64,000 nucleotides of DNA from the NCBI RefSeq assembly GCF_963921235.1, contig NC_086108.1:11346001-11410000 (forward strand), in the 5' to 3' direction. This DNA is from Mobula hypostoma. Taxonomy: Eukaryota. Both the position numbers and the translations under genes were made by a program. The notes under the pieces were generated by a model, which did not search any database, was not told where the DNA came from, and saw nothing but the letters and a program-made list of their open reading frames with translations. Positions 6,488-63,540 of the stretch are shown piece by piece. Position 1 is the first letter of the stretch. Each line of letters opens with the position of its first letter.

Positions 6488-9225
6488 AAAGTTCGAAGTA
6501 CATTTATTATCCAAGTATGTATATTGGAATCTACCTGGAGACTCACCTTGCTGCAGGCAGCCACAAAACAAAGAAACACAAAGAAAAGAAACCACACTCT
6601 GATGATCATCAAACATCCAATGTGTTAAAAAAGAACAAATCTTGAAAACAGTAAAAAGTAAACAAATAACATAAACCACAGAATCTCCGAAAGTGTGTCC
6701 ACAGCCACAGAGCCACTGAGGTGAGTGAAGCTGGTCCACGATCACCACGGCTGCAGGGAACAGCTCAGTGCCCAGGCAAGTGAAGATGGTCCAGGAGCTT
6801 GAAGGCCGCAGGCCACAGTCACAGAGTCAGTTCAGTGCTGAGTGAGTGACGATGGCTGTGACCACAGTCACAGAGTCAGTTCAGTACTGAGCGAGTGACG
6901 ATGGCTGCAGGTCACAGTCACAGAGTCAGTTCAGTACTGAGCGAGTGACAATGGCTGTGACCACAGTCATAGAGTCAGTTCAGTGCTGAGGGAGTGACGA
7001 TGGTGGCAGGTCACAGTCACAGAGTCAGTTCAGTACTGAGGGAGTGACGATGGCTGCAGGTCACAGTCACAGAGTCAGTTCAGTACTGAGCGAGTGACAA
7101 TGGCTGCAGGTCACAGTCACAGAGTCAGTTCAGTACTGAGCGAGTGACAATGGCTGCAGGTCACAGTCACAGAGTCAGTTCAGTACTGAGCAAGTGACAA
7201 TGGCTGTGACCACAGTCACCGAGTCAGTTCAGTGCTGAGGGAGTGACGATGGTGGCAGGTCACAGTCACAGAGTCAGTTCAGTGCTGAGCGAGTGACGAT
7301 GGCTGTGACCACAGTCATAGAGTCAGTTCAGTACTGAGGAGTGACGATGGCTGCAGGTCACAGTCACAGAGTCAGTTCAGTACTGAGCGAGTGACGATGG
7401 CTGCAGGTCACAGTCACCGAGTCAGTTCAGTGCTGAGGAGTGACGATGGTGACAGGTCACAGTCACAGAGTCAGTTCAGTGCTGAGGGAGTGACGATGGC
7501 TGCAGGTCACAGTCACAGAGTCAGTTCAGTACTGAGCGAGTGACGATGGCTGCAGGTCACAGTCACCGAGTCAGTTCAGTGCTGAGGAGTGACGATGGTG
7601 ACAGGTCACAGTCACAGAGTCAGTTCAGTGCTGAGGGAGTGACGATGGCTGCAGGTCACAGTCACAGAGTCAGTTCAGTACTGAGCGAGTGACGATGGCT
7701 GTGACCACAGTCACCGAGTCAGTTCAGTACTGAGCGAGTGACGATGGCTGCAGGTCACAGTCACAGAGTCAGTTCAGTGCTGAGTGAGTGACGATGGCTG
7801 TGACCACAGTCACCGAGTCAGTTCAGTGCTGAGGGAGTGACGATGGTGGCAGGTCACAGTCACAGAGTCAGTTCAGTGCTGAGGGAGTAACGATGGCTGT
7901 GACCACAGTCACAGAGTCAGTTCAGTGCTGAGGGAGTGACGATGGCTGCAGGTCACAGTCACAGAGTCAGTTCAGTACTGAGCGAGTGACGATGGCTGTG
8001 ACCACAGTCACCGAGTCAGTTCAGTACTGAGCGAGTGACGATGGCTGCAGGTCACAGTCACAGAGTCAGTTCAGTGCTGAGCGAGTGACGATGGCTGTGA
8101 CCACAGTCACCGAGTCAGTTCAGTGCTGAGGGAGTGACGATGGTGGCAGGTCACAGTCACAGAGTCAGTTCAGTGCTGAGCGAGTGACAATGGCTGTGAC
8201 CACAGTCATAGAGTCAGTTCAGTACTGAGCGAGTGACAATGGCTGTGACCACAGTCATAGAGTCAGTTCAGTACTGAGCGAGTGACGATGGCTGTGACCA
8301 CAGTCATAGAGTCAGTTCAGTACTGAGCGAGTGACGATGGCTGTGACCACAGTCATAGAGTCAGTCCAGTGCTGAGGGAGTGACGATGGCTGCAGGTCAC
8401 AGTCACAGAGTCAGTTCAGTGCTGAGCGAGTGACGATGGCTGTGACCACAGTCACCGAGTCAGTTCAGTGCTGAGGGAGTGACGATGGTGGCAGGTCACA
8501 GTCACAGAGTCAGTTCAGTACTGAGGGAGTGACGATGGCTGCAGGTCACAGTCACAGAGTCAGTTCAGTGCTGAGGGAGTGACGATGGCTGCAGGTCACA
8601 GTCACAGAGTCAGTTCAGTACTGAGCGAGTGACGATGGCTGCAGGTCACAGTCACAGAGTCAGTTCAGTGCTGAGGAGTGACGATGGCTGCAGGCCACAG
8701 TCACAGAGTCAGTTTAGTACTGAGGTTTCTTGATCAAATCTCACAAATAATAAAAATAAATATTAAAGGAAAACACGAAGAACATGAACTGCAGAGTCCC
8801 CAAAAGTGAACCACAGTTGTTCAGTGCCGAGGCAAGTGAAGCCCGTTCTGGGGCCTGACGGCAGCTCCCCAAACTCTGTGGTACAGGACCCAGGACTTCT
8901 GCACCTTCTGCCAAGAGCAGCGAGAAGTGAGAGAGACGGGTCAAAGGCAAGCAGACGGCTCTATACACCTGTTTTATTGCTACTCTCTACCTCAACAATT
9001 TTAACCTTGCTCGATGCTTTATTCAGCAGAGAATAATGGAGCTGACCACGAGGTCATTTTTCACCATTAGAAAGCGACACAGCCTCGCTCAGCAATGGCC
9101 GCTACACTCCATGCTGAATCTCCCAGGAGATCGTAAAAATGTCTGGTTGTTTAGTCATCTCAGAGGTAATCTTTGAAAGGGAAATTAGAGGCGGCAGTTA
9201 ATGGCATTTCAGAAGAAGTGTGACA
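6488..9225 (-). mobile_element. Family X non-autonomous retroposon hosting a minisatellite; 5' end probably continues at 14406-14475
   Basis: AAAGTTCGAAGTACATTTATTATCCAAGTATG tail and CAGGCAGCCACAAAACAAAG motif. 14406-14475 resembles the reverse complement of the family 5' end at 28111. Confidence 0.6.
6812..8725. repeat. Minisatellite, 49-50 bp unit, about 38 copies
   Basis: Unit CACAGTCACAGAGTCAGTTCAGT(A/G)CTGAG(C/G)GAGTGACGATGGCTG(CAGGT/TGAC), head to tail with no unique spacers. Confidence 0.97.
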
Positions 9226-14240: not shown

Positions 14241-15175
14241 TGTACTTACATAGTTTAGTGCTTCCTGCACTCTGGTTGATCGTTCATTGATTCTGTTATA
14301 GTTACTACTCTCTGGATTTGCTGAGTATGCCCACATGAAAATGAATCTTAGGATTGTATATGGTGACATATATGTGCTTTGATGATAAAATCTACTTTGA
14401 ACTTTGAAGAGTAGTATCTGTTAATTTTATGAGCTGTCTGCAAGGTGTTGCCATTGGTTTCTGGCACCTTCTTGCTATCTTGCTATACCTTCTAAAACTT
14501 TCCCATCCATGTAACTGTCCAACTGGCTTTTACAAGCTGTACCTGCCTGAACCATTTCCCTTGGAGGATCATTCCACATTGACACCACTGTCTGGGTAAA
14601 ATAATTTGTCTTGCCTCTGTCACGGTCCAGTCCATGAAGTCCACATTCCGGTTCACGGTCCAGTCTGTGGATGCCGTATTCTGGCTATTCCTTTTTTCCC
14701 TTGTTCCGTTGGGTGCCTTAATCGAGGCACCTGATTCTCGTTTCGGGCTGGCAACATAAATAGCTCTGGGATCCGGTGATTCCTTGCTGGACTGTCCTTG
14801 TCAGTAACCTCGTCAAAATCCCCGTCAAGTTAACCCGCCAGAGAGAGACTTGAGCCGCTGTCTGTAGTTCCTGGGCCGCGTTGAGGGCTCGCCGCTACTT
14901 GGAGCCTATTCGTGTCAAGATAAAGAACAGACTATCGTTGTGTGGTTTTGTCTCTCCATGTTCTCTCCTCCCCAGGGTAGGTCCAGCCGTTTGCTGCTAC
15001 CCTGAGGGGGGTACGGTCTCAGTGTTCTGTGTCCTGGGTGTAAGAAGAGTTCCGGTTCTATATCCTGTGTCCAAGGAGGAGTCCCGGCTCTGTGTTCTGT
15101 GTCTTGTGCCTTAGTCAAGTCTGAGCCTAGTCCAAGTCAAGAGTCAAGTTCCAAGTCCAAGTCGAGAGTCAAGTT

Positions 15176-20821: not shown

Positions 20822-21515
20822 TGGGAGGGGATTTGATAGAGGTATACAAAATGATGAGGGGTTAGATAGGGTAAATGCAAGCAGGCTTTTTTCCCACTGA
20901 GGTTGGCTGGAACTACAACTTGAGGTCATAGGTCAAAGGCCCAAACTTCAAAGGCTCGTTTATTTTCAAAGTATACAACTCAGAAATTCTTCTTCTCCAA
21001 GTAGCCGTGAAACCAAGAAAGAAAAGGTGAAAAGCGAAAAGATTAAGGGGAACATGAGGGGAAACTTCTTCAATCAGACTGTGAAATGAGCTGACAATGC
21101 AAGTAACCGGAAATCTGCAGATGCTGGAAATTCAAGCAACACACATAAAAGTTGCTGGTGAGCTCAGCAGGCCAGGCAGCATCTCTAGGAAGAGGTGCAG
21201 TCAACGTTTCAGGCCGAGACCCTTCGTCAGACAAAGGATCTCGGCCTGAAACGTCGACTGCACCTCTTCCTAGAGATGCTGCCTGGCCTGCTGCGTTCAC
21301 CAGCAACTTTTATGTGTGTTGACAGTGCAAGTGGTGGATGTGAGCTCGATTTCAAGGTTTAAGAGCTTCGGATAGGCAATGGATGGTAGGGGTATGGAGG
21401 GCTATGGTCCCAGTTGCAGGTCAATGGCAGTAGGCAGTTTAAATGGTTCGGCACAGACTAGATGGGCTGAAGGGCCCATTTCTGTGCTGTACTTTTCTGT
21501 GACTTGATGACTCTA
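20822..21515 (+). mobile_element. CR1-type 3' fragment interrupted by small inserts
   Basis: GGGGATTTGATAGAGGTATACAAAAT...GATGGGCTGAAGGGCC...TCTGTGCTGTA. Confidence 0.7.
21105..21321. mobile_element. Penelope-derived foldback element carrying hammerhead motifs, with ~13-bp TSD
   Basis: 21137-21321 is a near-perfect palindrome centred on 21229. Minus arm reads CTGACGA-AGGGTCTCGGCCT-GAAACGTT-GACTG. Flanks TGACAATGCAAGT (21092-21104) and TGACAGTGCAAGT (21320-21332). Confidence 0.8.
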
Positions 21516-22099: not shown

Positions 22100-22757
22100 A
22101 GAATGCAGGGCAGGCTGCACTTCTACTACCTTAGGTGTTTGTAGAGATTCGGCATGACATCTAAAACTTTGAGAAACTTCTATAAAGGGGTAGTGGAGAG
22201 TATATAGACTGGCTGCATCACTGCCTGGTATGGAACCACCAATGCTCTTGAACAGAAAATCCTACAAAAAGTAATGGAATTGGCCCAGTACATCACAGGT
22301 AAAGCCCTCCCAACTGTCGCAAGAAAGCAGCATCCATCTGAGACCCCCACCACCCAGGTCATGCTCTCTTCTCACTGCTACCATCAGGAAGAAGGTACAA
22401 GAGCCTCAGGACTCACACCACCAGGTTCAAGAACAGTTACTACCCTTGAACCATCAGGCTCTTGAACCAAGGGAGATAACTTCATTCAACTTCACTTGCC
22501 AATCATTGAAATGTTCCCATAACCAATGGACTCAATCTGAAGGTCTCTTCATCTCATATTCTCGATATTTATTGCTATTTATTTATATTTATATTTTCCT
22601 ATTTTGTTGGCTTCTCCACTCTGGTTGAACACCAAAGTTGGTCTGGTTTTTCACTGATTCAATTATAGTTATTATTCTACAGATTTGTGTATGCCCACAT
22701 GAAAATGGATCTCAGGTTTCTATATGATGACATAAATATACTTTGACAATAAAATTT
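22100..22757 (+). mobile_element. Rex1/Babar-type 3' fragment; last bases resume at 27083-27107
   Basis: Homologous to 9470-10300 and 14260-14405; its tail is split by the RTE insertion. Confidence 0.8.
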
Positions 22758-25700
22758 CCAGTCATAACTAAATGTTCTAATGTCTCTCCGCATGATGTGT
22801 CCAAAGAACTTTGGTTGCTGTTTTCTGATTTGTTTTTAAGTAATGTACGTTTTGTTTTCGTTCTCTGTAGAACTTCTCCGTTAGTTATCCTGTCCGTATA
22901 TGATATGTATAGCATTCTTCTGAGGAACCACATCTCTGCTGCATTGATTCTTTTTTCCATTGTATTTGTGATGGTCCATGACTCGCAGCCATACATCAAC
23001 ACAGGAAGAATGTAGCAGCTGAGAGTTCTAAGGCGGATATTAATTCTTATTTTCTTGTTCATTAGGATGTTTCTCATTTCTGTGAATGCTGTTCTTGCCA
23101 TTGCTATTCCTCCTTTTATATCTGTTTCACATTTGCCATCAGATGTTACCCATGATCCAAGGTACCTGAGTTGTGAATTTGTTTCAGGATTTTATTTCCC
23201 AATACAATCCTGCAGTTTGGGATATCAGGTTTCTTTGATATTACCATTACTTCAGTTTTCTTTTTGGTTAAGGTTAGGCCAAGTCTTTCGCTCTCTGTGT
23301 TGATGGCAGATACTGGTTTCTGTAAATTTATTTCACTGCTTGCTATCAGTACTGAATCATCCGCATAGTGGAGGTTGTTGATATTGTATCCTCCTATACT
23401 TATTCCAGGTAGGTCTTGTATGGTTCTCATGATGTTTTCACTGTACGGGGAGAGCAGGTCTGGTGATAGAACACAACCCTGTCTGACTCCTCACTTTATT
23501 GGCTGATATTCACCAATCTCATTGTCTATCCGTATGGCTGCACTTTGTTGCCAGTAGAGATTCCTGATTATTCTTATATCTTTTCCGTTGATATTAATTA
23601 AGCATTTTCATGATGACTTGGTGTTTCACTGTGTCAAAGGCTTTTGTGTAGTCAATGAAACACAAGTCTTGTTGTACTTCTATTGACCTTTCGATAATAT
23701 TCCTGGGAATATAAGTGGCGTTTGCTGTTCCCTTGCCTTCAACAAAGCTGCACTGTTCTTCACTGATCTCTGGTTTAATTTTGTTTCTTATTCTGAGCAT
23801 GATGATTCTAACTAGAATTTTTGTGAGGTGGCTCATTAAATTAATTGTTCCGTGTTGTCCACACTCTGTTGCACCTGGTTTCTTTGGCAGTGCAATGAAT
23901 ACTGTCTTTGGCCCAGGCAGTTGTCCCCAGGAGCTTCAAGATCGCCACCATCGTGCCAGTGCTGAAGCATTCCACTGCCACGGGCCTGAATGACTTCCGC
24001 CCAGCTGCACTCACCCCCATCATTGCAAAGTGCTTTGCGAGACTGGTTCTATCACATCTGAAATCCTGTCTGCCCACTACCCTGGACCGCTATCAATTTG
24101 CCTATCGCACCAACAGGTCAACAGAGGATGCCATCTCCACGGCACTTCACTCTGCCCTGACCCACCTGGACAACCCCAACTCGTACGTCAGAATGCTGTT
24201 CATTGACTTTAGTTCAGCATTCAATACTGTGATCCCCTCCAAGCTGATGGCCAAACTTCGCCAGCCTGGTATCAGCTTATCCCTCTGCAATTGGACCTTG
24301 GACTTTCTGACTAACAGACCCAATCATTAAGTTAGACAACCTCTCCTCCTCCACTCTCACCCTGAAGATCGGCGTGCCTCAAGGCTGTGTGCTGAGCCCT
24401 CTTCTGTACTCCCTTTTCACCTATGACTGCATTCCTGTACATGGTTCTAACTCCATAACCAAGTTCGCAGACGACACCACGGTAGTTGGCCTGATCAGGA
24501 GGGACGACGAGACGACCTACATGGATGAGGTCCAGCACCTGGCGGCGTGGTGTGCCAACAATAACTTGGTCCTTAACACCCAGAAGACCAATGAGATCAT
24601 TATGGACTTCAGGCATGCTAGGAGCCACACTCACATCCCCATCTACATCAACGGAGCTGTAGTGGAGCGTGTAACAAGCTTCAAATTCCTTGGTGTCCAC
24701 ATTTCCAAGGATCTCACCTCGTCCCTGAACTCGTCCATCCTGATCAAAAAGGCGCAACAGTCCTTTATTTCCTGCAGAGCATCAAGAAAGCTCACCTCTG
24801 TCCCAGGATACTGATGGACTTTTACCGCTGTACCATTGAGAGCATACTCACCAACTGCATCTCAGTGTGGTATGGCAATTGTCCTGTATCAGATCACAAA
24901 GCACTCCAGCGTGTGGTAGAAACTGCCCAACGGATTATCAGCACCCAATCGCCCACCACTGAGAACATCTACCATAAATGCTGCCTGGGCAGGGCAAAAA
25001 GCATTATCAACGATGCATCTCACCATAACCATGGACTTTTTACTCTCCTCCCATCTGGTAGGCGCTACAGGAGCCTCCGCTCCCGCACCAGTAGGTTCAG
25101 GAAGAGCTTCCTTCCTGAGGCTGTGACCCCGCTGGAACTCACATCACAGCGCTAAGCAGTATTGCACCCATATTGTACTGTCTCAGTACTTTTTTATTTG
25201 TGTGCTGTAGTACTTACTTTTTATTCACAGTTATTTTGTAAATAACACTATTCTTTGCATTTCTGGTTAGATGCTAACTGCATTTCGTTGGCTTTGTATC
25301 TGTACTCGGCACAATGACAATAAAGTTGAATCTAATCTAATCTAAAAGGTCTTCTGGTACTTTGCCACTGTTGAATCTTATTCTATTCAATAAGATTGTT
25401 AATTTCTCTACACCAAAATCGTCTAGCGCTTCATACAGTTCAACCGGAATGTTATCTGGTCCTGATGATTCCCCCTTTCGCATTTTCTTCATAGCATGTT
25501 CCACTTCTTTCAATATTGCTGGGCCCTCGTTGTTGTTGCCAATATCAAAGTTGTCCTCTCGGTCTTTGATGTATTCTGACCATCTTTGCATTATTTTTCC
25601 TTTTTCAATAATTGTAGATCCGTCTTTTGCTTTTATACATCCTGTTGTTGCTGGGCTTTTCTTCCAACTTGTGACCTCTTAGATCTCGTCATGCATACGT

Positions 25701-27082
25701 TTGCTGTTGTTGGTCTTCTGCAATTGTTCTATTAACTCACATTGGTCCTTAAGCCACTTTCTTCTGTTTCCTTGCACTTGGTTGTTACCTGTGCATGCAA
25801 GGATATATAGGCTTTTTCGTTTTCCTTATGTGTTCTTCTTTGTTCCATAAGATTCAGAATTTCTTCTGTCACCCATTTGTTTTTAGCTTTTTCTTTTGTT
25901 TGGGAATCACCTCTTGTGCTGCTCATGTTATGCTGTCTCTGAGGTTTTCCCATTGCTGTTCTATAATAGTGATGTTTTGTAGAGCCTCAAATTTGTTCTT
26001 CACTGTTATTTGGAATTCATTTTTGATGTCACCGCTTTTTTCTCAAAAGTCCCAAATTCAACTTTGGCTCTCCTCTTGGTCTTTTAAGCTTTCTGAGTGG
26101 CAGGTACATCAGGCTGATTATTGGTAAGTTATCACTGTCGCAGTTTGCACCGGGATATGTTTTGCATGATTTCAGAGCATTTCTATACCTTCTCCTTATA
26201 AGCACGTAATCAATCCGGTTTCTGTTGTTATCCCCTGGGCTCCTCTATGTCCATAGTTTTCTTGGGTGTTGCTTGAAGGCGGTATTACCAATTATATAAT
26301 CTTTTCCTGTGACCCATGTAGCTAGTCGTTCACCTCTCTCATTTCTCTCACCTATGCCATAATGCCCAATATTGTCCTCGTCCCTGGTCTTGCCTACCTT
26401 TGCGTTGAAGCCACCTTGAATAATGGTATTTTCTGGGCTCTTACATTGTCTTAATGCTGTTTCTAGTTCGTTGTAAAATTGATCGATGCTTTCTTCACTG
26501 CTGTCTGCTGCTGGGGCATAAACTTGAACAATGTTCATGTCCAAAGGTTTTGCATGTAGTTTCACAAGTAACATTCGATCTGATATTTTCCAAGCGCCTT
26601 TTATTGACTTTGCATGTTCTTCATCGAACATAATTCTAACACCTTTTTCATGTATTTCTCCTCCTGAGTAAATGATGGTATGTCCCTCTGAGCTTGTTTT
26701 GCCTGGCCTGCTGCATTCACCAGCAACTTTGATGTGTGTTTCCTGTTTGATGTTGTCTAGTTTACCAGGTTGGTTAAGGGTTCTTACATTCCAGGTTGCT
26801 AGTCTGATTTTTCTTGCTTTTAATCTGCCAACAGTCGCTGGATAACGGTCGAGGTTCACCTGTGGCGCATGAGATCCTCTACCAGATGAGGTTCCTTCGG
26901 TGAAGAATCCATTCACATCTTTGAACTTAGACCGTAGTTGATTTGCAGAGGCAGATAGAGAGTGAAAATGAATAACATCATGGTTAGAAACAGGGGAGGC
27001 AACAACTACAATTCGGAGGGTCAGGGACCGTGATGGATGGAGAGACATGATCGCTCACGTCGAATGGCAAGGCACCTGAATG
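22758..27082. mobile_element. RTE-clade LINE, near full length, with 5' inversion: 26943->22758 on minus, 26944-27082 on plus
   Basis: Minus strand: LATWNVRTL, VQVYAP, GGFNAKVG, GPDNIP, FIDYTKAFD, NNLHYADD, MYGCESW, LEHLVMTG. Plus strand: RGR*RVKM...RDRDGWRDMIAHVEWQGT* with TGAA tail. TSD AATAAAATTT at 22748-22757 and 27083-27092. Confidence 0.88.
23909..25342 (+). mobile_element. Rex1/Babar-type LINE, 5'-truncated RT, nested in the RTE
   Basis: [49 protein letters not shown]; (AATCT)n tail. It splits the RTE sequence [16 protein letters not shown]. Confidence 0.92.
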
Positions 27083-27232
27083 AATAAAATTTACTTTGAA
27101 CTTTGACGAATGGCCCATCAAAATGCCTGAAGACACAGTGTGCATAAAATATTCAGGCATATCAGCTCTGGAGACTTCTCTGTTAAAGGTACTTCAGGAT
27201 ATACCTGAGATCCGATTAGAGTACACTGTTGT

Positions 27233-27545
27233 ACGAGGGGTGATTGATAAGTTTGTGGCCTAAGGTAGAAAGAGTCGATTTTAGAAAACCTAGCACATTT
27301 ATTTTTCAACATAGTCCCCTCCTACATTTACACACTTAGTCCAGTGGTGGAGCAAACGGATCCCTTCTTTGTAGAAGTCGGCGTCTTGGACCTCCAGAAA
27401 GTGGTCCACAGCAGGGGTGATTGATAAGCTCGTGGCCTAAGGTAGAAGGAGATGAGTTATTAACTTCAAACTTTCTGCATAATCACTCAAAGAGTTGAAC
27501 TGCATGTGCATGTAACGAGAGCTGTATAGCTCATCATCACCCCTG
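27233..27545. mobile_element. Tc1/mariner-type MITE (same family as 10303)
   Basis: TACGAGGGGTGATTGATAAGTTTGTGGCCTAAGG start; ATCACCCC end. Confidence 0.8.
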
Positions 27546-31278: not shown

Positions 31279-31574
31279 AGGTTTTAGACTGAATTACCAA
31301 AGGTAATCAGTGAGGCATTGGTGAGCCTGCGAAAAGGCAAACATCCCAGGGTGAGTAATATGTAAATTCCTCGCCCTCAATCCTCAAATGTGAGTGGGCA
31401 GATGAAAGGAACACTCAGTGCCAGAGAAGAGTTACTGGAACTCAGGGACAGAGGCTGCTCTCAAGCCAAGGACCTGGGCGGTGTGGAAAGGATGAGGCCT
31501 ATTAAAGGACGCTAAGTCTGTGAGGGAAGCGCTGGTGTAGACACCAAGCCGGTCACAGGCTCAGCATGTAGGAC

Positions 31575-33685
31575 GGGGGAATGAGAGGATGAGGAGGGTG
31601 TGAGTCATTGAGGGAGTGAGGGAATGAGGGGGTGAGGGGATGAGGAGTTGAGGAGATGAGAGGGAGGAGGGGATGAGGGGATATGGAGATGAGGGATGAG
31701 AGGATGGGGATGAAGGGATGAGAGGGATGAGAGGATGGGGATGAGGGAGTGAGATAATGAGATTAGGGGATTAGGGAATAAGGTGGATGAGGGGTGAGGG
31801 ATGAGGGAGGTGAGGGGGATGAGGGGTATGATGGAGTGAGGTAATGAGATGAGGGATGGGGATATGAGGGGTTGAGGGAATGAAGAGATGAGGGATGAGG
31901 GGGTTGAGGTAATGAGATGAAGGATGAGGGACTGAGGGCTGTGATGGATAAGGGGTTGAGGGGATGAAGGAAGGGGGATGAGTGAATGAGGGGTTGAGAG
32001 AGTGAGGAAGTGAGGGTTGAGGGGATAAGGTGGATTGGAGATGATGAGTGAGGGATGAGGGATGGGGGTGAGGGGGATGAGGGGTATGAGTGGGTGAATA
32101 TATGAGATGAGGGATGAGGGATGAGGGGATGAGGGATGAGGGTTGAGGGACAAAGGGATGAGGAATGGGAGTGATGAGGAGGATGAGGTTATGAGGAGGA
32201 TAAGGGTATCAGGAAATGAGGGGAATAAGGGGATGAGGGGACTAAGGGAATGTAAGGGATGAAGTAATGAGGGGTGATGGATGAGGGAATGAGGGATTGA
32301 GGGAATGAGGAAGTTATGGATGAGGGATAAAGGGATGAAGGGGATGAGTGGGTGAGGGATGAGGGAATGAAGGATAAGGGGATAAGGGGAATCAGGGATG
32401 AAGGATGGGTGGGATGGGGGAATGAGGGGGATGAGAGGATGAGGAGGATGAGAGTGAGGTAATGAGGAGATGAGGGGATGAAGGGAATGAAGGAATAGGG
32501 GGGTTGAGGGAATGGGGGATAAGAGAATGAGAGGTTGAGGGAATGAGGTGAGGGATAAGTGGATGAGGGATAAGGGGATGAGCAGGATGAGGGATGAGGG
32601 GTATAAGGGAATGAGGATGTTGAGGGAATGAGGGATGAGGGGGATAAGGGATAAAGGGATGGAAATGAGGGGGATGAGGGATGAGGGGTATAAGAGAAAG
32701 AGGGCTTTGAGGGAATGAGGAATGAGGGGGATGGGGGATAAGGGGATGAGGGGGATGAGGGGATGAGGGGGATGAGTGTGAGGGGTATAAGGGAATGAGG
32801 GATGATGGGTTCAGGGAATAAGGAGGTGAGGGATGAGGGTGAGGAATAAGGGGATGAGGGTGCTGTGATAAGGGGATGAGGGATGAGGGAGATGAGGAAA
32901 TGAGGAAATTAAGGGGATGAGGGATGAGGGAATAAGGGATGAGTGTTTGAGTGGGATGAGGGGATGGGAGATGAGGAAATGAGGGGTTGAAGGAATAAGG
33001 AGGTGAGGGATGAGGGGATGATGGACAGGGGATGAGGGGTATGAGGGGTATATGGGGATGAGGGGGTTGAGGGAATGAGGGATGGGGATGAGGGGTTGAG
33101 GGAATAAGGAGGTGAGGGATGAGGGGATGAGGGATAAGGGAATGAGGGGGTGAGAGGTGAGCAATAAGGGGAATAGGAATATAGGGATGAGGGAATGTGG
33201 GATAAGGGGATGAGTGGGATGAGGGGTCAGGGGGATGAGGGATGAGGGGGTGAGGGATGCGTGTGGTGAGGAGATGAGGGGGATGAGAGGATGAGGAGGA
33301 TGAGAGATGAGGGAATGAGGTTGAAGGAATAAGGAGGTAAGGATGAGGGGGATGTGAGGGATGAGGGGATGGGAGAATGAGAGAATGAGGATGAGGGTGA
33401 GGGGAATAAGGGGTGGGGGTTGAGCAGGATGAGGGGATAAGAGATGAGGGAATCAGGGGTTGAAGGAATAAGGAGGAGAGTGATGAGGATGAGGTAATGA
33501 GATGAGGGAATGAGGGGATGAGGGAATAAGGAAGTGAGGGATGAGGTGATGAGGGGGATGAGAGGGTGAGGGATGAGGGTTTGAGGGATAAGGGGATGAG
33601 GAATGAGGTGTGAGTGGGATGAGGGGCCAAGGGGGGAAGAGGAAGGAGGGGATGAATGGGATGAGGGGGATGAGGAATGAGGGGC
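31575..33685. repeat. ~2.1-kb purine-rich degenerate (GGGATGA)n low-complexity tract; resumes at 35549-35665
   Basis: Almost C-free G/A tract read directly; interrupted by a Rex-type LINE. Confidence 0.95.
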
Positions 33686-35548
33686 TGAGGCAGTGTAGCA
33701 TACAGGAGGTGTGGACAGGCATTGGTTTCAATCAGCCTAGCTGCAGAGCCTTGGAATGCAGCCATGAATGGGCTAATGAGTTAAACCGATTTTTCAATAG
33801 GTCTGACAATTGCACTCCTGATCACACCCCCCTCAGCACACCAGCCCAGGTGCTGAGGCACCTAATGCTCCTTCAGTACTAAATACTCCCCTCCTCCCTC
33901 CTCCCCCATCCAGTTCAACACGTGGATGAACAACACAGGCTACCTCTGTCTACACCCCATCCTTCCCCTGTACCTACTATCCACATCTCCACATCCCAAT
34001 CTTCACCTCCCCCAGCCCTCACCTTCCTCTAACTCCCCATTCATCATGGACTCATCTTCACTACTGAGCAGGTGAGAAGGGCTCTGGGGATACAGACACG
34101 GCAAAGCATTGGGACCGGATGGTATGATCCTGAAGGAGTGTGCTGAGTAGCTGTGCGGTGTCCTCCAGCGCGTTTTCAACCTGAGTCCCAGCCTGGAAAG
34201 GGTCTCCACTGTGTGGAAAGCACCATGTGTGGCCCAGTGCCGAAGAAGGGACAACCAAAAGTCTTGAATGACTCCCGTATAGTGGCCCTGACCTCACACA
34301 CCATGAAGACCCTTGAGAGGCTGGTCCTGGCTCACCTCCGACCCCAGGTCAGATCGACCCTCGATCCCCTGCAGTTTGCCTACCATGAGCACATTGGAGT
34401 CGACGATGCTGTCATCTACCTGCTGAACAGAGCCTACTCCCATTTGGATAAGTAGGACAGCACTGATTTGGATCATGCTTTTTGATTTCTCCAGTGCTTC
34501 TAATACTATACAGCCCTCATTGCTGGGGGAAAAACTCTGTTCAATGCAGGTTGACACCTCCATTGTATCCTGGGTAATGGACTACCTGACTGGCAGGTCA
34601 CAGTTTGTGTGGCTTCAGAGCTGTAAGCGGCATTGTGGCCTCATAGGGGACTGTATTGGCTCCCTTCCTGTTTACCGTGTATACCTTAGACTTTCGGTAC
34701 AACGCTGAGTCGTGTCATCTGCAGAAATTCTTCGATGACTCAGCAATAGTTGGGTGTATAAAGGGAGGACAGGAGGATGAATACAGAGCCCTGGTGGAGG
34801 ACTTTGTCAAATGGTGCAAGCTGAAATCATCTGCAGCTCAACATCAGTAAGACAAAGGAGATGGTGATGGACTTTAGGAAGCCTAAGCCTGCTACACTGC
34901 TCTGTTACTATTGATGGTGAGGACATGGATATGATGGGAACCTACAGGTACCTGGGGTGCATCTGGATGACAGACTTGAGTGGAGCACCAACACAGAGGC
35001 TGTGTATAAGAGGCGCCAGTCATCTCTACTTCCTGAAGAGACTGGCCTCTCCTTTACATGTTCTACCAGTCTGTTGACACCAGTATAACCTTCTATCTGG
35101 TGGTGTGCTGGGACAGTGGCATCAACACGGGTGATGCCAACAGGTTCAATAAACTGATTAGAAAGGCTGGTTCTGTTATAGGAGTCAAACTGGACACTCT
35201 GGAGGTTGTAGTAGAACAAGGGACCCTGTGGAAATTCCTGGCAAATCCAGACAACATTTCTCACCTTCTGCACGCCACCTTGGCTGAGCAGCAGAGCACT
35301 TTTAATAATAGATTAAGATAACTGCGCTGCTCCAAAGAACACTATATGAGGTCATTCTTGCCCTTGACCATTAGGCTCTATAATGAGTCAACCTATAGCC
35401 GGGGAAGTGATAACCCCTTTCAGTTAGACTGTTTGTGGTAACTTATTTTTTATTCTTTTATACTTCTCTTCTAATATTTATATATGAACACTTGTAATGC
35501 TACTGTGACACTGTAATTTCCTTTGGAATCAATAAAGCATCTATCTAT
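33686..35548 (+). mobile_element. Rex1/Babar-type LINE, degenerate
   Basis: ANELNRFFNR, LNDSRIVALTSH, DPLQFAY, LFDFSSASNTIQP, QKFFDDSAIVG; AATAAAGCATCTATCTAT tail. Confidence 0.88.
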
Positions 35549-42410: not shown

Positions 42411-43662
42411 GGTACAACTCCCCACAGGCTACAGGGGGAATTGAACCTGGGTCGCTGGTACCGTAAAGTGTTGTGGTACCCTCCATGCTACTGTGCCACA
42501 CCCACTTGGCAAATGTGATAAAATGGAGAAGTTGTTTTCTTCGCTGCTTAAACTAGATCCAGAAGACAGAAGTATAAGGCGGTCCCTAATTAAACCTAAG
42601 GCTCTAGAACAACTAGGCTTTAGGGAGGGTGGAACTCCCTCCTCGGGGCAGGATGGGAATGAAATGAAATCAGTGAATTTTGAGTCAACAGAGTGAAGAG
42701 AATGATTGGTAAATCGGTAACTCACTGCTCATTACACCACCGGTGTTTAGGACATATGACGAAAGAGGGTTACAAAAGTACACATAGACTAAGATGTTAA
42801 CTGTCCTGTGCTAGCACCAGTGGGATCAACAGTTGATCTGCCACCTGTCTTCAGGAGAGAGAGATAAGGAAGACAATGGAGCAGCATTTGGAAATGTTAA
42901 TGAAGAGGTGAGAGAGTTTAACGGAAGGAGACACCGGTCTGAGTATTGTCAAGACCAGCTCCTTTTGAACCCTGAACTGTTTGAAGTGTGATGGGCAGGC
43001 GATACCCCAGCAGGGGGATAAAAAGAGGCAGGTTCGCTAAGACACCACACACACGACACCACGAGGTAACGAGACCCTGGAAGCAGCGCGCCCCCACAAG
43101 TCGGTGGGAGTTTTGGAGGTCTGGTTGCGGTATACACGCACAGCCATAGACGCACAGGGTGGAAAGATACGGTCGGCGGGAACCTGGTGTGTGTCCGCCC
43201 TTGCCTGAGTGCCGGATTCACCGCCGAAGAACGATCGTGTCTGGAACGGAGGGGTCACAGTCGGTGACCTCAGATGACATTACAAAGGGCTCGCCTGAAA
43301 GCTAACTGCGAGGAATATCGAAGGTCTGTTTGGAATCCGATTTGCATATTCATTCGTTCTCTCTCTCTCTCTCTCCAACGGCACGACGGCGATTACTGCG
43401 AACTGAACTAAACTGAACTCTATCACTTGTGATTGATCATCTTACCCCTAGACTACGATAGAGCTTGATTGACCCTATTATCCTAGTTCTGTGTACATGT
43501 GTGTTTATTCATTGCTAACCTGTTGCATTTATATCCTTACTATTAGAGTACTGTGTTGCTTATTTCTTTAATAAAACTTTCTTAGTTCCAGTAATCCAGA
43601 CTCCAACTGAGTGGTCCATTTCTGCTGGTTTGGCAACCCAGTTACAGGGTACATAACATAAG

Positions 43663-43689
43663 TGGGGTTCTCGTCCGCGAATTTGAACG
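43663..43689 (+). promoter_or_regulatory. Primer-binding site complementary to tRNA-Pro 3' end
   Basis: TGGGGTTCTCGTCCGCGAATTTGAAC resembles the canonical TGGGGGCTCGTCCGGGATTTGAAC. Confidence 0.8.
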
Positions 43690-43757
43690 CTAAATTTGGG
43701 ACGGAGTAAATTGATTGGGTTAAAATTCCCGAAAGAAAGAAAAGGCAAACAGCAGAA

Positions 43758-46670
43758 ATGGAGATTGAGGAATTTCTAAAGACGCCGACCTTGGAGGCAT
43801 TAGAGGATGCCAGGAAAGCGGAATTGGCAGCTGTGGCCAAACGGTTGAATCTTGTTAAGGGAAAGTCGACAATGAGGAGAGAGGAGATACACAGAGCTAT
43901 CGTAGAGCACTATGTATCTAAAGGTGTGTTTCCCCAAGGGGAGCTGGAGGTGGTATCAATGGGAAAACCTGGTGGAGACGCAGTACAGGTGCAGATTGAA
44001 AAACTGAGACTCAAGCACGAGTTCCGGGTGCGGCAGCTAGAACACGAAGAGAGACAGTTAGAACGGCAAGAGAGAGAGAGAGACAGTTAGAACGGCAAGA
44101 GAGAGAGAGGGACAAGCAGTTGGAGCGAGAAGAGAAACAGAGGGAAAGGGAATTCGAGCTGGAGAGGTTAAAGATGGTGGCAGAGCAGGGGCCCATGCCG
44201 AACCAAGGTGGAGGGTTCAGGGCGACCCAGGAGGTTAGGCTGGTTCCCCCATTTGACGATACTGATGTGGATTGGTACTTTCTCCATTTCGAAAAAGTTG
44301 CTACAAGTCAGGACTGGCCGAGGGATAAGTGGGCTGTTTTGCTTCAGAGTGTGCTTAAAGGGAAAGCCCAGCAAGCTTACTCGGCTTTGTCCGCGGAAGA
44401 TGCCCAGAGGTTCGAGGTGGTGAAAGAGGCCATCCTCAGGATTTATGAGTTGGTCCCGGAGGCATACCGGTAGAGGTTCCGGAATGCGAGGGAACAGTGG
44501 GACCGCACGTATTTAGAGTTTGCCCGTGAGATGCAGACATATTGTGAGCGTTGGTGCGCCTCGAAGGGGGTAAATGGGGATTATGATGGACTGCTACAGC
44601 TGATCCTGATTGAGCAGTTTAAAGGTTGTGTCCCTGAATGTATGAGACCCTACCTAGATGAGAAAGAGGCAGCCACGTTAGCCGCAACTGCTAAGTTAGC
44701 AGATGAGTACGCGTTGAAGCATAAAATGAAGTTTTCCCCGAGTAAAGGCTACTAGAAGGGTAGTCAGGATGGCGGGGAGAGTCCGCCAGAAAAGTCAGTA
44801 AGTACGCCGGGGACTAGTGAGAAGGATAAGGTAGACCGGGAGCAGTCTGGTAGGAAGTCTCCTGGGGTCATCTGTTATAATTGTGGGAAAGTCGGACACT
44901 TTGCGTCCAGGTGCTTTGCCCCAAAGAAGGAGACGGGGAAAGGAAAAACGGCGATTTCGACTGGCTGTATTGGGCTGGTAAACAAACCGCTAGGAGAGGA
45001 CAGGTCTGCCAAAGTTCAGGAAGGGCATGAGAGGTTTATCTCGGTCGGATTGGTGTCGGTGAAGGAGGGGTTAAACCCAGTTCCAGTATGGATCTGGAGA
45101 GACATGGGAGCATGTCAGTCATTGATATTGAAGAGTGTGTTAGAGTTTAGTTCAGAGACCCAGACTGGGGAGGTCAGGGTTAAAGGTATTGGAAAAGGGA
45201 CTGAAGCCGTGCCTTTGCACCAGATACACCTACAAAGCGACTTGATCTCTGGACCAGTCACGATCGGGGTGAGACCCGAACTACCGATGAAAGACGTGGA
45301 GGTCTTACTTGGTAATGACCTTGCGGGGGGAATTGTGTTCCCAGCAGTGAGATTGACAGGTCAGCCTGCCAGCATTGAGGCCCCGCCCATGGACTCACAG
45401 GTTTATCCTGTTTGCGCAGTGACTCGCTGTGTGTCCAGAGAGACTGCTGAGACGTTTCTACCAGCCTTGTACGAGGAGGGGGTAGAAAGTGAAAAGAAGG
45501 AGCGTAATGAAACAGGAGGAAGTGGGGAAACTAAGGTAGATTTATCATTAGAAAAGAAGGACTTTATACAGGCACAGGAGCGAGACGAGGAAACAGCTCT
45601 CTGTGAAACAGAATTAGGAAGGGAGCCAGTGAATTATGGTGTGAAGGGGAAGGTGCTAAGGAAGGAAGGAAGACCAAGTACCGCAGATGAGGAATGGGGG
45701 GTGGTGCAAAAGAGTTATGGGGATGAGATTTTTAACCTGGCCCACAAGGTACCCCTCGGTGGACATTTTGAGGTGCTGAAGGAAACAGTCGGCGGAGCCA
45801 TGAGAGAATTTTTCTGGCTGCACAGGAGGAAGGATGTTATTGATTATTGCAGACGCGAACTGAGACGGTCACAGGCTTTTGATATGCTAACAAACCTAGT
45901 CGGTGTTAGCGCGGAAATCAATGAAGCTAGGGTGCCACCTGATAAAGGGAAAACCCATTTTGAAAAGATGAGTATGGTACCGACCAGATGGGAGAAGGCT
46001 ATTGTTTTGCTGATAAGGTCTCTCCCTTAATCCCCGAACAAAGCGACCCTTTAGGAGAGCTAATTAAACGGCTCGCACACGTGTGTTTGATTGTCCCGAG
46101 GCGATGCAAAGAACTGGGACGTTGGGTGGTGTTTGTTACGTTAGGTTAGCCTAGTGAGCAACAACCCTATAGAATGAGTAATTCAGTGATGAAAGGGCTA
46201 AAGAACACATACGGCTGTCTGAAGCCAGCTTGATAGTGGACCTTGAAAAAAATGAGTTCGGCCACACGAAGGTCACTTATCTGGGAATTGTGGTGACACA
46301 GGGGCAGCTGGCGGCGATGCAAGCTAAGGTGCGGGCTATCTCTGACATCTCAACCCCGACAGACAAGAGGGCCCTCAGAAGGCTCTTGGAGATGGTGGGG
46401 TACTGTAGGAAGTTTTGCAATAACTTTGCGAGTACTACCCCTCCCCCTCCTACTAAGCCTTTGCGAAAGAAAACTAAGTTGGGATGGGATGACCCTTGTT
46501 ATCGTGGTCCGGGACGAAACCCAATGAGAGGTTACACTGATCACAATTCATCAGTGTTTTCGGCCACTATGAAGTTTGCTAAGTTGAAGCCTGGTATAGA
46601 GGATTATTAAAATAACACGTATAAAAGGGGCAGAAAATGTGATTGCTGACTGTCTGTCCAGGTGTTGACA
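43758..46670 (+). pseudogene. gag-pol remnant: SCAN-like capsid, CCHC knuckle, protease, fragments of integrase, RT and RNase H
   Basis: PEAYR*RFR...LILIEQF...LADEY; CYNCGKVGHFASRC at 44873-44914; RDMGACQSLI...LLGNDL; LAHKVPLGGH...FFW...DYCR; VTYLG...VGYCRKF; YTDHN; IKGAENVIADCLSR. Frameshift and stops present. Confidence 0.9.
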
Positions 46671-47690
46671 ACTTAAAAAGTCTCTGTATTAGCCAAATAG
46701 CTGATGAAGATGTATATTTGTGCGTATCTAATAATGTATTCATGCTTGTAAATTTTACCCTGGTAAAAATCCTTAAAAGGGAGGGGTGTGACCAAAGAGA
46801 GTTACAAAAGTACACATAGACTAAGATGTTAACTGTCCTGTGCTGGCACCAGTGGGATTAACAGTTGATCTGCCACCTGTCTTCAGGAGAGAGAGATAAG
46901 GAAGACAATGGAGCAGCATTTGGAAATGTTAATGAAGAGACGAGAGAGTTTAACGGAAGGAGACACCGGTCTGAGTATTGTCAAGACCAGCTCCTTTTGA
47001 ACCCTGAACTGTTTGAAGTGTGATGGGCAGGCGATACCCCAGCAGGGGGATAAAAAGAGGTAGGTTCGCTAGGACACCACACACACGACACCACGAGGTA
47101 ACGAGACCCTGGAAGCAGCGTGCCCCCACAAGTCGGTGGGAGTTTTGGAGGTCTGATCGTGGTATAGACGCACAGCCATAGACGCACAGGGTGGAAAGAT
47201 ACGGTCGGCGGGAACCTGGTGTGTGTCCGCCCTTGCCTGGGTGCCGGGTTCACCGCCGAAGAACGATCGTGCCTGGAAGGGAGGGATCACAGTCGGTGAC
47301 CTCAGAAGACATTACAAAGGGCTCGCCTGAAAGCTAACTGCGAGGAATATCGAAGGTCTGTTTGGAATCCGATTTGCATATTCATTCGTTCTCTCTCTCT
47401 CTCTCCAACGGCACGACGGCGATTACTGCGAACTGAACTAAACTGAACTCTGTCACTTGTGATTGATCATCTTACCCCTAGACTACGATAGAGCTTGATT
47501 GACCCTATTATCCTAGTTCTATGTACGTGTGTTTATTCATTGCTAACCTGTTGCATTTATATCCTTACTATTGGAGTACTGTGTTACTTATTTCTTTAAT
47601 AAAACTTTTTTAGTTCCAGTAATCCAGACTCCAACTGAGTGGTCCATTTCTGCTGGTTTGGCAACCCAGTTACGGGGTACATAACAGACA

Positions 47691-47949: not shown

Positions 47950-50480
47950 TGTTGTTGTGTGTGTGGTTGTGCAAAATTACATATCAATGAAATAAGAGCA
48001 CACAGATGGGAGATAGCTCTAACTGGTGTTTTCACACTGGAGTGAGAGAGAGAGAACAATGCACAGGCACAGACAACAGATCAATACATAACACTAAGAG
48101 GTGGGGGGTGTCATTGCTCTAAAATAAACAGATCCATACATTACCCGTCTTCCCCCTTTAGAGTAATGCAATACAAAGCTGTATATGTACAAAACACTCA
48201 ATTTCCCTCTCATAAACCCATTTTCCAACTAAAAATACTTTCACAATAGCAGTCCACAACTAACTTCACAGTTCTAAACGTTCAATCTTTTGGGTGGCAC
48301 CCTGTTTCTTTCAGGATAGCGCCTCACGACCTGTGGAGTGGCATTGGGTTTGGTGGGTGTCTTGTTTAAGACAATGTTCTCAGTTTCTGGTGTTGCATTA
48401 CTGTCAGTGACATCATCACTAAGAGGCAAATCCAGTGACTGTAATGTATCTGTCTTGTTAGATGTGTTTGACTCAGATGTCTTCTTGAGTTGAGCATCCA
48501 GTATCTGATCTACATGACGTCTCCGTGTATGATCACCAACATCCATTGTGTACATCAGTGGTCCAGTTCTTGTAGCTACCCTACCGGGTGTCCACTTGTC
48601 TTCTCGGTAATCATGCACTAGGACTTCCTGTCCAATCTTATAGCTCCTTGCTGCTTCACTTGACAACTGGCTGAACTGTTCATTCTGTACTTCCCTCTGT
48701 AGGTCTGGTTTCAGGAGGTCTGTACAAGGTCTCAGATTTCCGCTCATGAACAGCATTGCAGGTGTTTGCTTTGTTCTCACTTGAACAGAGATCCAATACA
48801 CAAAAATCAAGCTGTCCACCTTGTGCTGTAGAGGAAAGTCCTCCTTGTTCATCACTTTAATGGTCTTCTTGAAGGTTTGGATAAACCTTTCAGCTAACCC
48901 ATTCATTGCTGGGTGGTGAGGAGCTGACTTGAAATGTCTGATGCCATGAGCTTCGGAGTTCTTCTGACGTGTATCGTGGTCCATTCTGGTAAGCCATTCC
49001 TGGCGAAGACAGTCCTCAGAGCAGAGACAGTCTTTGCTGATGTGTTTGACTTCCTTAGTATAACCTCTGGACTTTTCAAATGAGCATCCACAACAATCAG
49101 AAACATGGAGTCCTTGAATGGCCAAGGAATGTCGATATGTACACTTTACCAAGGTTATTACGGCCACTCCAATGGGTGTAACGGTACCTATGGAAGTGCA
49201 TTTTCAACTTCTTGGTATCCCGAACAAATTTTGGCCAAGTCTTCAATCTGATTATCTATTCAATATTTGGGAGAAGCCGGTGGTAGTAGTTTTCAAAGCC
49301 CAAATATGACCCGAGTTGTGACTTATTTTCTGATTTGGGTGCCTGTAGCACTGCTTCAGTCTTCTCTTGTGACTTATGTAAGCCATGCTTGTCAATGACA
49401 TGGCCACAACATGAGATTTCATTCTTGAAAAACTCATATTTCTCTCTCTTTGTGCACAGACCATACTCACTCAGCCTGTTAAGCACTTTATCAAGGTTCT
49501 GGAGTTGCTCTTCATCATTTTTGCCAATCACAATGATGTCATCAAGGTAACATTGTGTGCCTGGGATATCTTGGAGCACTTGGCCCATTGCTCTTTGCCA
49601 AATTGCTGGAGCTGATCCGATGCCAAAGATGAGATAATTATACTGGAACAGTCCCTTGTGAGTGATGATTGTGAGAAGCGTCCTGATTGACTTCTCAATC
49701 TCCATTTGCAGATAGGCTTGTGACAAGTGTTCAATCTTTGTAACCCTCTCACCGCCTGCTAGAAATGCAAAAGTGTCCTGTATTCGTGACAGGAGATACT
49801 GTACAGTAAGCAGCACCGGACAGATGCTCACCTTGAAATCCCCACATATGTGAACTTCCCTTTCTTGATCACCAGCACAATAGGCATGGCCCATCGCTCC
49901 ACTCAGCCTTGCAGAGAATTCCAGACACCTGCAAGCTCTGCAGTTTAGCATCCACTTTAGGGCGTACTGCATAAGGCACTGGATAGAGGCACTTCATGGA
50001 ATCCTAGTGTTTCTGTTTCATCCAGTTCAATTCTGGCCTTCATGCCTTTGAGTTTACCAATCCCCTTCTCATTAGCATTAAGCAGTTGTTCCAGTTTCTG
50101 TTTAGTGCTACCATTTGGGCTGCCGTTGCCTGTTGATGTCACATTGAGAGTTTTGACTGAGTGCCAGTGGAGTTGGATTTTTCCCAAACCATTCACATCC
50201 GAAAAGTGCTGGCCCTCCTCTTTTCAATACGTAAAGCTCTAATTGCTGTGTTTGGCCTCCATATGCCACCTTCACTTTCAGTTTACCTTTGGGGGACACT
50301 TTTCACTTGTGTACGTCTTTAACATCACTGAAATCTTCTTTAATGGCACCTTAATCTGTTGTAGTCAGCCTCTGGAATTAAAGACAAAGCTGACCCTGAG
50401 TCCAGCTCCACTTTAAGTTCTACACCAGACATATCCATTTTGATTCAGATAATCTTGTGATCCGCTTCAGTAATACTATG
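47950..50480 (-). mobile_element. Degenerate Gypsy element (canonical PR-RT-INT order), 5' part missing, short 3' LTR ~48145->47950
   Basis: LKVELDSGSA protease, ICGDFK, APAIWQR, CYLDDIIV, FLIVVDAH, PHHPAMNGLAERF, RRHVDQ, RRYPERNRVPPKRL; PPT TAAAGGGGGAAG. Most of RNase H appears deleted. Confidence 0.88.
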
Positions 50481-61050: not shown

Positions 61051-61314
61051 GCTGCTTGTAATATACTTGTCTGACTGAAGAGCTGTAGAGCAGGGGCAGA
61101 GGAGGAGATCAAGTTGGAGCACACTCGAAGGTCCAGCAGACACAAGGATCTGTAATGGTTTCCCCTCTCCGGTATTTGGCCTTGAACTGCTCACTCCATC
61201 ACAGTCCTTGTTGCTTCTTCAGCATCTGCCTGGCCATGCTTTGAGATTGTGTACCAAGCCAATGCCAGTCTGACTTGCTCAGTCACACAGTCACCCTCAA
61301 GGGAAAAGCTGTTG

Positions 61315-61496
61315 GTGCTGGAAATCCGAGCAACACACGCAAAATGCTGGAGGAACTCAGCAGGCCAGGCAGCATCTATGGAAAAAAGTACAGTCGATTA
61401 GTCCATCTGAAGGGTTTTGGACTGAAACGTCGACTGTACTTTTTTCCATAGATGCTGCCTAGCCGGCTGAGTTCCTCCAGCATTTTGTGTGTGTTG
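61315..61496. mobile_element. Penelope-derived foldback element (related to 21105)
   Basis: ~67-bp inverted arms at 61331-61397 and 61430-61496; loop ends in GAAACGTCGACTG with a decayed hammerhead core. Confidence 0.8.
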
Positions 61497-63299: not shown

Positions 63300-63540
63300 C
63301 CTATCCAACGTAACTTCATTGGACATGTGATTCGGAAAGAGGAGTTAGAATGCACGGTAATTATGGGAAGGATTGAAGGGAAGAAAGCAAGAGGAAGACA
63401 AAGACGAATGATGACGGAGACAACAGCCAGAGAACTGGAAATGAATACGGATGAATTGATCCACTTGACCCGAAACAGGAGTGCGTGGGCCATGGCAGTC
63501 AAAGCTCAAACTGGGCACGGCACCTGATGATGATGATGAT
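63300..63540 (+). mobile_element. RTE 3' end with (GAT)n tail, next to a CR1 fragment at 63130-63285
   Basis: FIGHVIRKEELE...GRIEGKKARGRQR...W...GHGT* followed by GATGATGATGAT. Confidence 0.9.

Follow-up and report, generated by a model that had tools for sequence, protein, structure and literature searches.

INTRODUCTION

Twin priming is, to our knowledge, documented almost solely for mammalian L1, and twin-primed, 5'-inverted insertions of this long interspersed element (LINE) were reportedly described by Ostertag and Kazazian in 2001. LINEs of the RTE clade have a single open reading frame (ORF) of ~1,000 amino acids (aa), which begins shortly before an AP endonuclease (EN) domain and continues into the reverse transcriptase (RT); they are without a C-terminal CCHC finger and end in a very short 3' untranslated region (UTR) with a microsatellite tail. 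Here we analyze an RTE insertion with an inverted 5' part in a stretch of 64,000 nucleotides from Mobula hypostoma (contig NC_086108.1, positions 11,346,001 to 11,410,000 of the forward strand), called the window below and numbered from its first base. Its anatomy makes it quite likely that a single retrotransposition event produced the insertion through twin priming; the mechanism is known but seems undescribed in this LINE clade.

In a cell study across LINE clades, inversion was linked with L1 in human cells and with 3' overhangs of at least 10 nt; priming, its authors suggested, fails when the overhang measures only ~5 nt. In the same source, the target site duplications (TSDs) of inverted L1s measure 10-20 bp and those of RTE elements peak at 10-12 bp (PMC4245944). 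Twin priming is likewise tied to L1 in PMC4476161, PMC13174262 and bioRxiv 2024.12.14.628481. PMC2881922 does not mention inversion, and twin priming appears solely in the reference lists of PMC5389967 and PMC2718515. No report of RTE twin priming was found in the literature searched, which covers few subscription papers. A survey of RTE junctions is said to have been published by Ichiyanagi and Okada in 2008 and could contain a prior report.

RESULTS

Anatomy of the insertion and its target site

Two copies of the 10-bp sequence AATAAAATTT (22748-22757 and 27083-27092), the only ones on the plus strand of the window, enclose 4,325 inserted bases, a nested LINE included. The RTE sequence consists of an inverted part of 2,753 nt and a forward part of 138 nt, so that ~95% of its length is flipped. 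The insertion and its target comprise the following features.

22250-22757, plus strand: host repeat, the 3' end of an older LINE, its tail being the target (22250 is not a mapped left limit); its translation contains HALFSLLPSGRRY, and paralogous copies cross the insertion point
22748-22757, plus strand: left TSD copy, AATAAAATTT, with the putative second primer in its terminal T's
22758-23908, minus strand: inverted RTE segment of 1,151 nt that spans RT to thumb; it reaches the TSD edge within the codon for Gly632 (numbering of protein P0001, introduced below) (tblastn with P0001 residues 245-632, 80-92%; Pfam RVT_1)
25343-26944, minus strand: inverted RTE segment of 1,602 nt, EN and linker, from 2-3 codons past the start Met and without 5' UTR (Pfam, tblastn and alignments of relatives)
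26944-26946: inversion junction, where ~1 nt may be common to both parts (one contig of another copy, from sequencing run X1, aligns as far as 26945)
26945-27082, plus strand: non-inverted 3' end of the RTE element (138 nt), which starts at the Ser639/Arg640 codons and includes the stop and the TGAA tail (P0001 residues 651-685 at 94%; codon walk)
27083-27092, plus strand: right TSD copy, whose first AAT prolongs the TGAA tail (3-nt 3' overlap)
27093-27106, plus strand: rest of the host-repeat tail, (ACTTTGA)2 (match to the intact repeat copy)

The forward part encodes the RTE C terminus; its stop codon is the beginning of the TGAA tail, and its TGAATGA end runs into the right TSD with an overlap of 3 nt. 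The minus-strand part stops at LEHLVMTG, abutting the left TSD, and leaves no sense remnant there. The original prediction, made from the sequence alone, had claimed both of these ends as well as the TSD, and had read the locus as twin primed; the anatomy agrees with it on each count. The inversion itself stands, with its TSD, its single family and its breakpoints, whereas the description of it had to be corrected for a nested LINE, the chosen comparator, the microhomology and the 5' UTR.

When the flanks are joined over one TSD copy, they match an intact repeat at 14283-14410 across the join (81% over 128 columns, E 3e-30), and they also align with shorter copies of the repeat at 41.6 and 53.1 kb. 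Because the joined flanks match intact copies, the target of the RTE element was the (ACTTTGA)n tail of an older LINE, which we take to be Rex1/Babar-like, and 10 bp were duplicated. On this comparison the direct repeat is a true duplication of an empty site that can be reconstructed. In a chance simulation, random pairs of points had a direct repeat of 10 bp or longer within ±8 nt in 5 of 4,978 cases; once the right end was fixed, the count was 0 of 4,966. The length of the duplication and its first base, A, are both in line with RTE insertions (PMC4245944, PMC6007223), and the length also falls within the span known from inverted L1s (PMC4245944).

One RTE family on both strands

The two parts were compared with P0001, a Logan-derived protein of 685 aa that forms an unnamed single-member cluster. 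Its residues 6-632 align to the minus strand in five frame-shifted pieces (74-92% identical) and residues 651-685 to the plus strand (94%). Since P0001 covers both parts at like identity, they belong to one family, not to the two different ones that the original prediction had named as the case that would overturn it.

Public sequencing runs contained at most 0.39 of the sampled words; read depth was examined in 4 of the 24 listed (X1, X5, X9 and X21). At the RT end, at the EN end and in the bin with the plus piece, the depth of the family was 7,960, 433 and 7,627 in X1; 52,522, 2,360 and 46,234 in X5; and 3,522, 289 and 2,931 in X9. X21 covered the nested LINE only and had no RTE coverage, so that the pattern is found in three of four runs. 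The drop from the RT to the EN end, with high depth again at the plus piece, is the gradient expected of one 5'-truncating family. No same-family RTE copy lies elsewhere in the window; DNA of the family was represented in metagenome contigs by only 4 distant loci (28-56% identity), and none was found in viral contigs or prokaryote genomes.

The ORF is collinear with EN-RT relatives of 965-995 aa. Pfam gave a match to RVT_1 above cut-off and one to Exo_endo_phos_2 below it (E 1.3e-4), and none of 120 relatives has a CCHC-like pattern within its last 120 aa. Among 69 endonuclease matches, 16 were named, 13 of them 'craniofacial development protein 2-like', a name that presumably goes back to the endonuclease of BovB/RTE. 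The matches returned included no named RTE reference, and a PDB search matched only L1, R2 and other RTs. The element thus combines a single EN-RT ORF, no CCHC finger, a short 3' end with a tail and a 10-bp TSD beginning with A. By this architecture and its TSD, and not by a tree, we classify it as an RTE-type LINE.

Internal breakpoints and the 5' junction

The minus-strand part ends in the Gly632 codon, and the plus-strand part begins at ~26945, in the codon for Ser639. A codon walk takes the latter back to Arg640 at 26947 and reveals an 8-nt deletion near 26971. Seven residues separate Gly632 from Arg640 in P0001, and the same linker is present in 92 of 105 pattern-matched relatives (120 examined), the family-level value resting on the one sequence P0001 plus these distant relatives. 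The gap between the internal breakpoints is therefore 17-22 nt, by the assignment of shared bases, with no sequence duplicated and, from one contig, ~1 base possibly shared at the inversion junction. Breakpoints "a few codons apart" had been predicted by comparison with an RTE sequence at 63360; they prove to be adjacent, 7 codons apart in a same-family protein. The comparator belongs to a different family (36% over 74 aa, with 14 nt aligning at the DNA level), and we rejected it in spite of its equal linker length. It lies in a short 3' fragment (63300-63540) that carries a (TGA)n tail and represents a second RTE family, just after another LINE fragment that we assume to be CR1-like.

Proximity of this kind is frequent in human inverted L1s, whose two ends fall within 20 bp in 132 of 287 cases (PMC12016303). 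It also bears on snap-back synthesis, in which the 3' end of the cDNA primes a copy of itself, as in R2, and which leaves element sequence in antisense orientation at the upstream junction (PMC11371274). Snap-back would require the inverted part to duplicate the sense part, but the two share nothing here (P0001 residues 6-632 versus 639-685); it would survive only if nearly all of the sense copy had later been lost, exact to within 22 nt. With no inverted duplication and internal breakpoints 17-22 nt apart, we rejected it and give it next to no credence.

At the left junction, the last TT of the TSD stands opposite the AA of Lys633, which forces 2 nt of microhomology. A third pair forms only if the Gly632 codon is GGA (15 of the 29 aligned Gly codons of this copy end in A), and a fourth base cannot pair, as Lys needs A or G; allowing one mismatch, up to 5 of 6 positions pair. 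Since the fourth base cannot match, the contiguous 5-nt AAATT overlap proposed originally lacks support unless a one-base slip is assumed, and it was rejected in favor of 2 nt forced and 3 likely. In inverted L1s, 5' microhomology of 2-5 bp is found in ~70% of cases (PMC2912911).

Such a short overlap (2-3 nt), together with the unusual length of the inverted part, would suit an insertion-time event other than twin priming on a single RNA: the second end could have found its template in another RTE RNA, or a broken long cDNA could have been captured in reverse by end joining, and the same TSD and orientations would be expected. Two independent RNAs should not, however, place their breakpoints so close together; by our own estimate, a distance of 22 nt or less on a 3-kb template has a chance of ~1.5%. 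A broken single cDNA would account for the adjacency, yet nothing here supports it directly. We regard such an event as unlikely.

Inverted-repeat arms at both breakpoints were absent among the 25 longest of 42 pairs, and recombination between inverted repeats was rejected. The result also counts against a later genomic micro-inversion of the 5' 2.75 kb of a plus-oriented, 5'-truncated RTE copy, with or without the nested LINE. Adjacent internal breakpoints and a small deletion would follow automatically from such an event, and the locus did suffer later damage (the nested LINE, a 41-nt patch and the 8-nt deletion). Nevertheless, the outer breakpoint would have had to lie almost at the TSD edge, a few bases away at most, and yet spare the TSD, which we estimate at ~1 in 500-1,000. 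We hold this explanation to be very unlikely; from the breakpoint at the TSD edge, we infer inversion at the time of insertion.

The 5' end of the inverted part

To place the end of the inverted part relative to the start codon, 15 top relatives with N-terminal coverage were picked and inspected by eye. In 13 of them the first Met is followed after 2-3 codons by the first inverted codon; the remaining 2 have a longer N terminus with a Met at the same place. These alignments indicate that copying covered nearly the entire ORF but did not extend into the 5' UTR, so that the earlier claim of a nearly complete element applies to the ORF but not to the 5' UTR, which is absent.

The inverted cDNA end (26941-26945), 2-3 codons inside the predicted start Met, coincides with the position at which one would expect the edge of a structured RTE leader, by chance or through a stop of the reverse transcriptase. 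As the second cDNA ends so close to the start Met, it may have stopped at the foot of a putative structured 5' leader.

Nested LINE and later damage

The inverted part was further modified by two features.

23909-25342, plus strand: nested 5'-truncated LINE of 1,434 bp with an (AATCT)n tail, splitting the RTE ORF between L244 and K245 (Pfam RVT_1, ALKBH8_N)
26700-26740: 41-nt patch of an unrelated palindromic repeat (95% to 21280-21320; alignment with relatives; loose contig ends)

According to the original prediction, everything upstream of the forward piece was on the minus strand, yet 1,434 of the 4,325 inserted bases belong to this plus-strand second LINE, presumably Rex1/Babar-like. Its duplication is at most 1 bp, and its tail overlaps the target by 3 nt. 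The RTE ORF resumes in frame exactly across it (tblastn), and contigs of runs X1, X5 and X9, in which the family of the nested LINE is far commoner than the RTE element, skip the 1,434 bases (joint 23908->25343). The nested LINE was inserted later than the RTE element.

The patch replaces ~60 nt of EN-coding sequence and keeps the frame (14 residues versus 21 in relatives). Its source type is the end of a palindromic repeat, a copy of which lies at 21138-21320, and it looks like a repair patch or an insertion remnant.

Support for the assembly

At the 3' junction, a 226-nt contig of X1 matches 27030-27255 without differences, and a 227-nt contig of X5, from a differently labelled organism and study, matches with 10 differences. 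The 3' junction is real and is probably older than the split of the X1 and X5 organisms; X1 may be the source sample. The misassembly check suggested earlier was passed at this junction; the inversion itself has no read confirmation among the listed contigs, and no orthologous copy carrying the two inversion junctions was observed there. An assembly artefact uniting pieces of different RTE copies would be easiest to imagine where the region is repeat-rich and the listed contigs leave both inversion junctions uncovered, as here. A misjoin, however, would not yield a TSD that matches the empty site plus breakpoints 7 codons apart, and the 3' junction recurs in X1 and X5, with the proviso that X1 may be the source. 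We consider an artefact highly improbable.

Proposed mechanism

Because a TSD brackets the insertion, with an inverted 5' segment at the TSD edge, a forward, tailed 3' segment, a small gap and no duplication, the anatomy is that of a twin-primed copy. Twin priming accounts for all of these features in a single event. From this one fossil copy we infer the following course, in which the order of steps, the pairing at the second primer and the use of a single RNA are all conditional. The endonuclease would have cut the A/T-rich tail of the older repeat with a stagger of 10 nt. The first 3'-OH would have primed at the TGAA tail of the RNA, giving 138 nt of cDNA, and the 3' overhang of the second strand, ending in ...TTT, would have paired with an A-run ~155-160 nt from the RNA 3' end (Gly632-Lys633 codons). 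The second cDNA would have run for ~2.75 kb and halted just inside the start codon. Head-to-head joining of the two cDNAs, with an overlap of 0-1 nt, would then have dropped the intervening 17-22 nt of the RNA, and the TSD would have arisen by gap filling. Afterwards the inverted part received the nested LINE, which is of another kind, and the copy decayed.

Several points weigh against twin priming. The locus is a single decayed copy, without a family DNA consensus. No listed contig spans 22757/22758 or 26944/26945, and the opposite-strand joint at the inversion is absent among the 15 joints shown, besides which there are 319 more. The 5' microhomology appears short and is weak evidence alone: its third base hangs on a Gly codon ending in A (15/29), and a 2-nt match would arise by chance about once in 10. 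The inverted and forward parts stand at 20:1, whereas their medians in the human germline, 751 and 571 bp, are much closer to each other (PMC12016303). In the cell assays, inversions occurred only with L1 in human cells and in one insert of Nimb-2_DR, and RTE was outside the three LINEs tested (PMC4245944). Lastly, the T-stretch near P-10 known from RTE targets (PMC6007223) is absent; TTT sits at P-4 to P-6 instead, and that signature was rejected for this target.

Other repeats in the window

Overall, the window contains many LINE fragments and simple repeats, and its repeats resemble those of rays. Two direct repeats of 902 bp, 96.8% identical, surround gag-like ORFs at 42757-47686, with no long pol ORF listed, a young structure like that of a long terminal repeat (LTR) retroelement. 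Another LTR-type retroelement is represented on the minus strand by ORF pieces that, judged by eye, are RT- and integrase-like (48274-49993). Long tandem arrays occupy 6801-8725 and 31571-33690, with a ~50/100-bp unit at ~90% identity and a degenerate purine-rich simple repeat, respectively. Palindromic repeats of ~190 bp with long terminal inverted arms, at 61305-61496 and 21111-21321, have several copies in the window.

DISCUSSION

This single dead copy has no evident function, and one locus yields no rate. Tentatively, and with about as much doubt as confidence, we suggest that RTE-clade LINEs twin-prime routinely in the germ line of a non-mammalian vertebrate, cutting the second strand before 140 nt of reverse transcription; the forward part of 138 nt would imply very early second-strand cleavage. 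If this were true, 5' inversion would follow overhang length (at least 10 nt), not L1 or mammalian host factors, as implied by the model in PMC4245944. The RTE stagger of 10-12 bp is at the overhang threshold, so natural RTE inversions would test overhang length against host. The value of the locus lies in a family-wide comparison, within the same genome, of RTE with clades of short TSDs (L2, CR1, Rex1).

Among described systems, R2 snap-back 5' junctions resemble this one in having antisense element sequence upstream, but R2 duplicates sequence and nothing is duplicated here (PMC11371274). Ordinary RTE insertions share the TSD of 10-12 bp beginning with A, the microsatellite tail overlapping the target and the single EN-RT ORF (PMC6007223, PMC4245944); unlike them, the present copy has an inverted 5' part and no upstream T-stretch near P-10. 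The single 5'-inverted insert of Nimb-2_DR in chicken DT40 cells likewise comes from a non-L1 LINE with a TSD peak near 12 bp, although of another clade and in an engineered cell assay, whereas ours is a fixed germ-line copy (PMC4245944). Mammalian 5'-inverted L1s differ from this insertion in their host, their ORF organization (here a single RTE-type ORF), their poly(A) in place of a TGAA tail and their proportions (germline medians of 571 bp forward and 751 bp inverted, against 138 and 2,753 nt; PMC12016303). With these L1s it nevertheless shares a TSD of at least 10 bp, an inverted 5' segment at the TSD edge, a forward, tailed 3' segment, internal breakpoints within ~20 nt and, putatively, a short 5' microhomology (PMC2912911, PMC4245944, PMC12016303).

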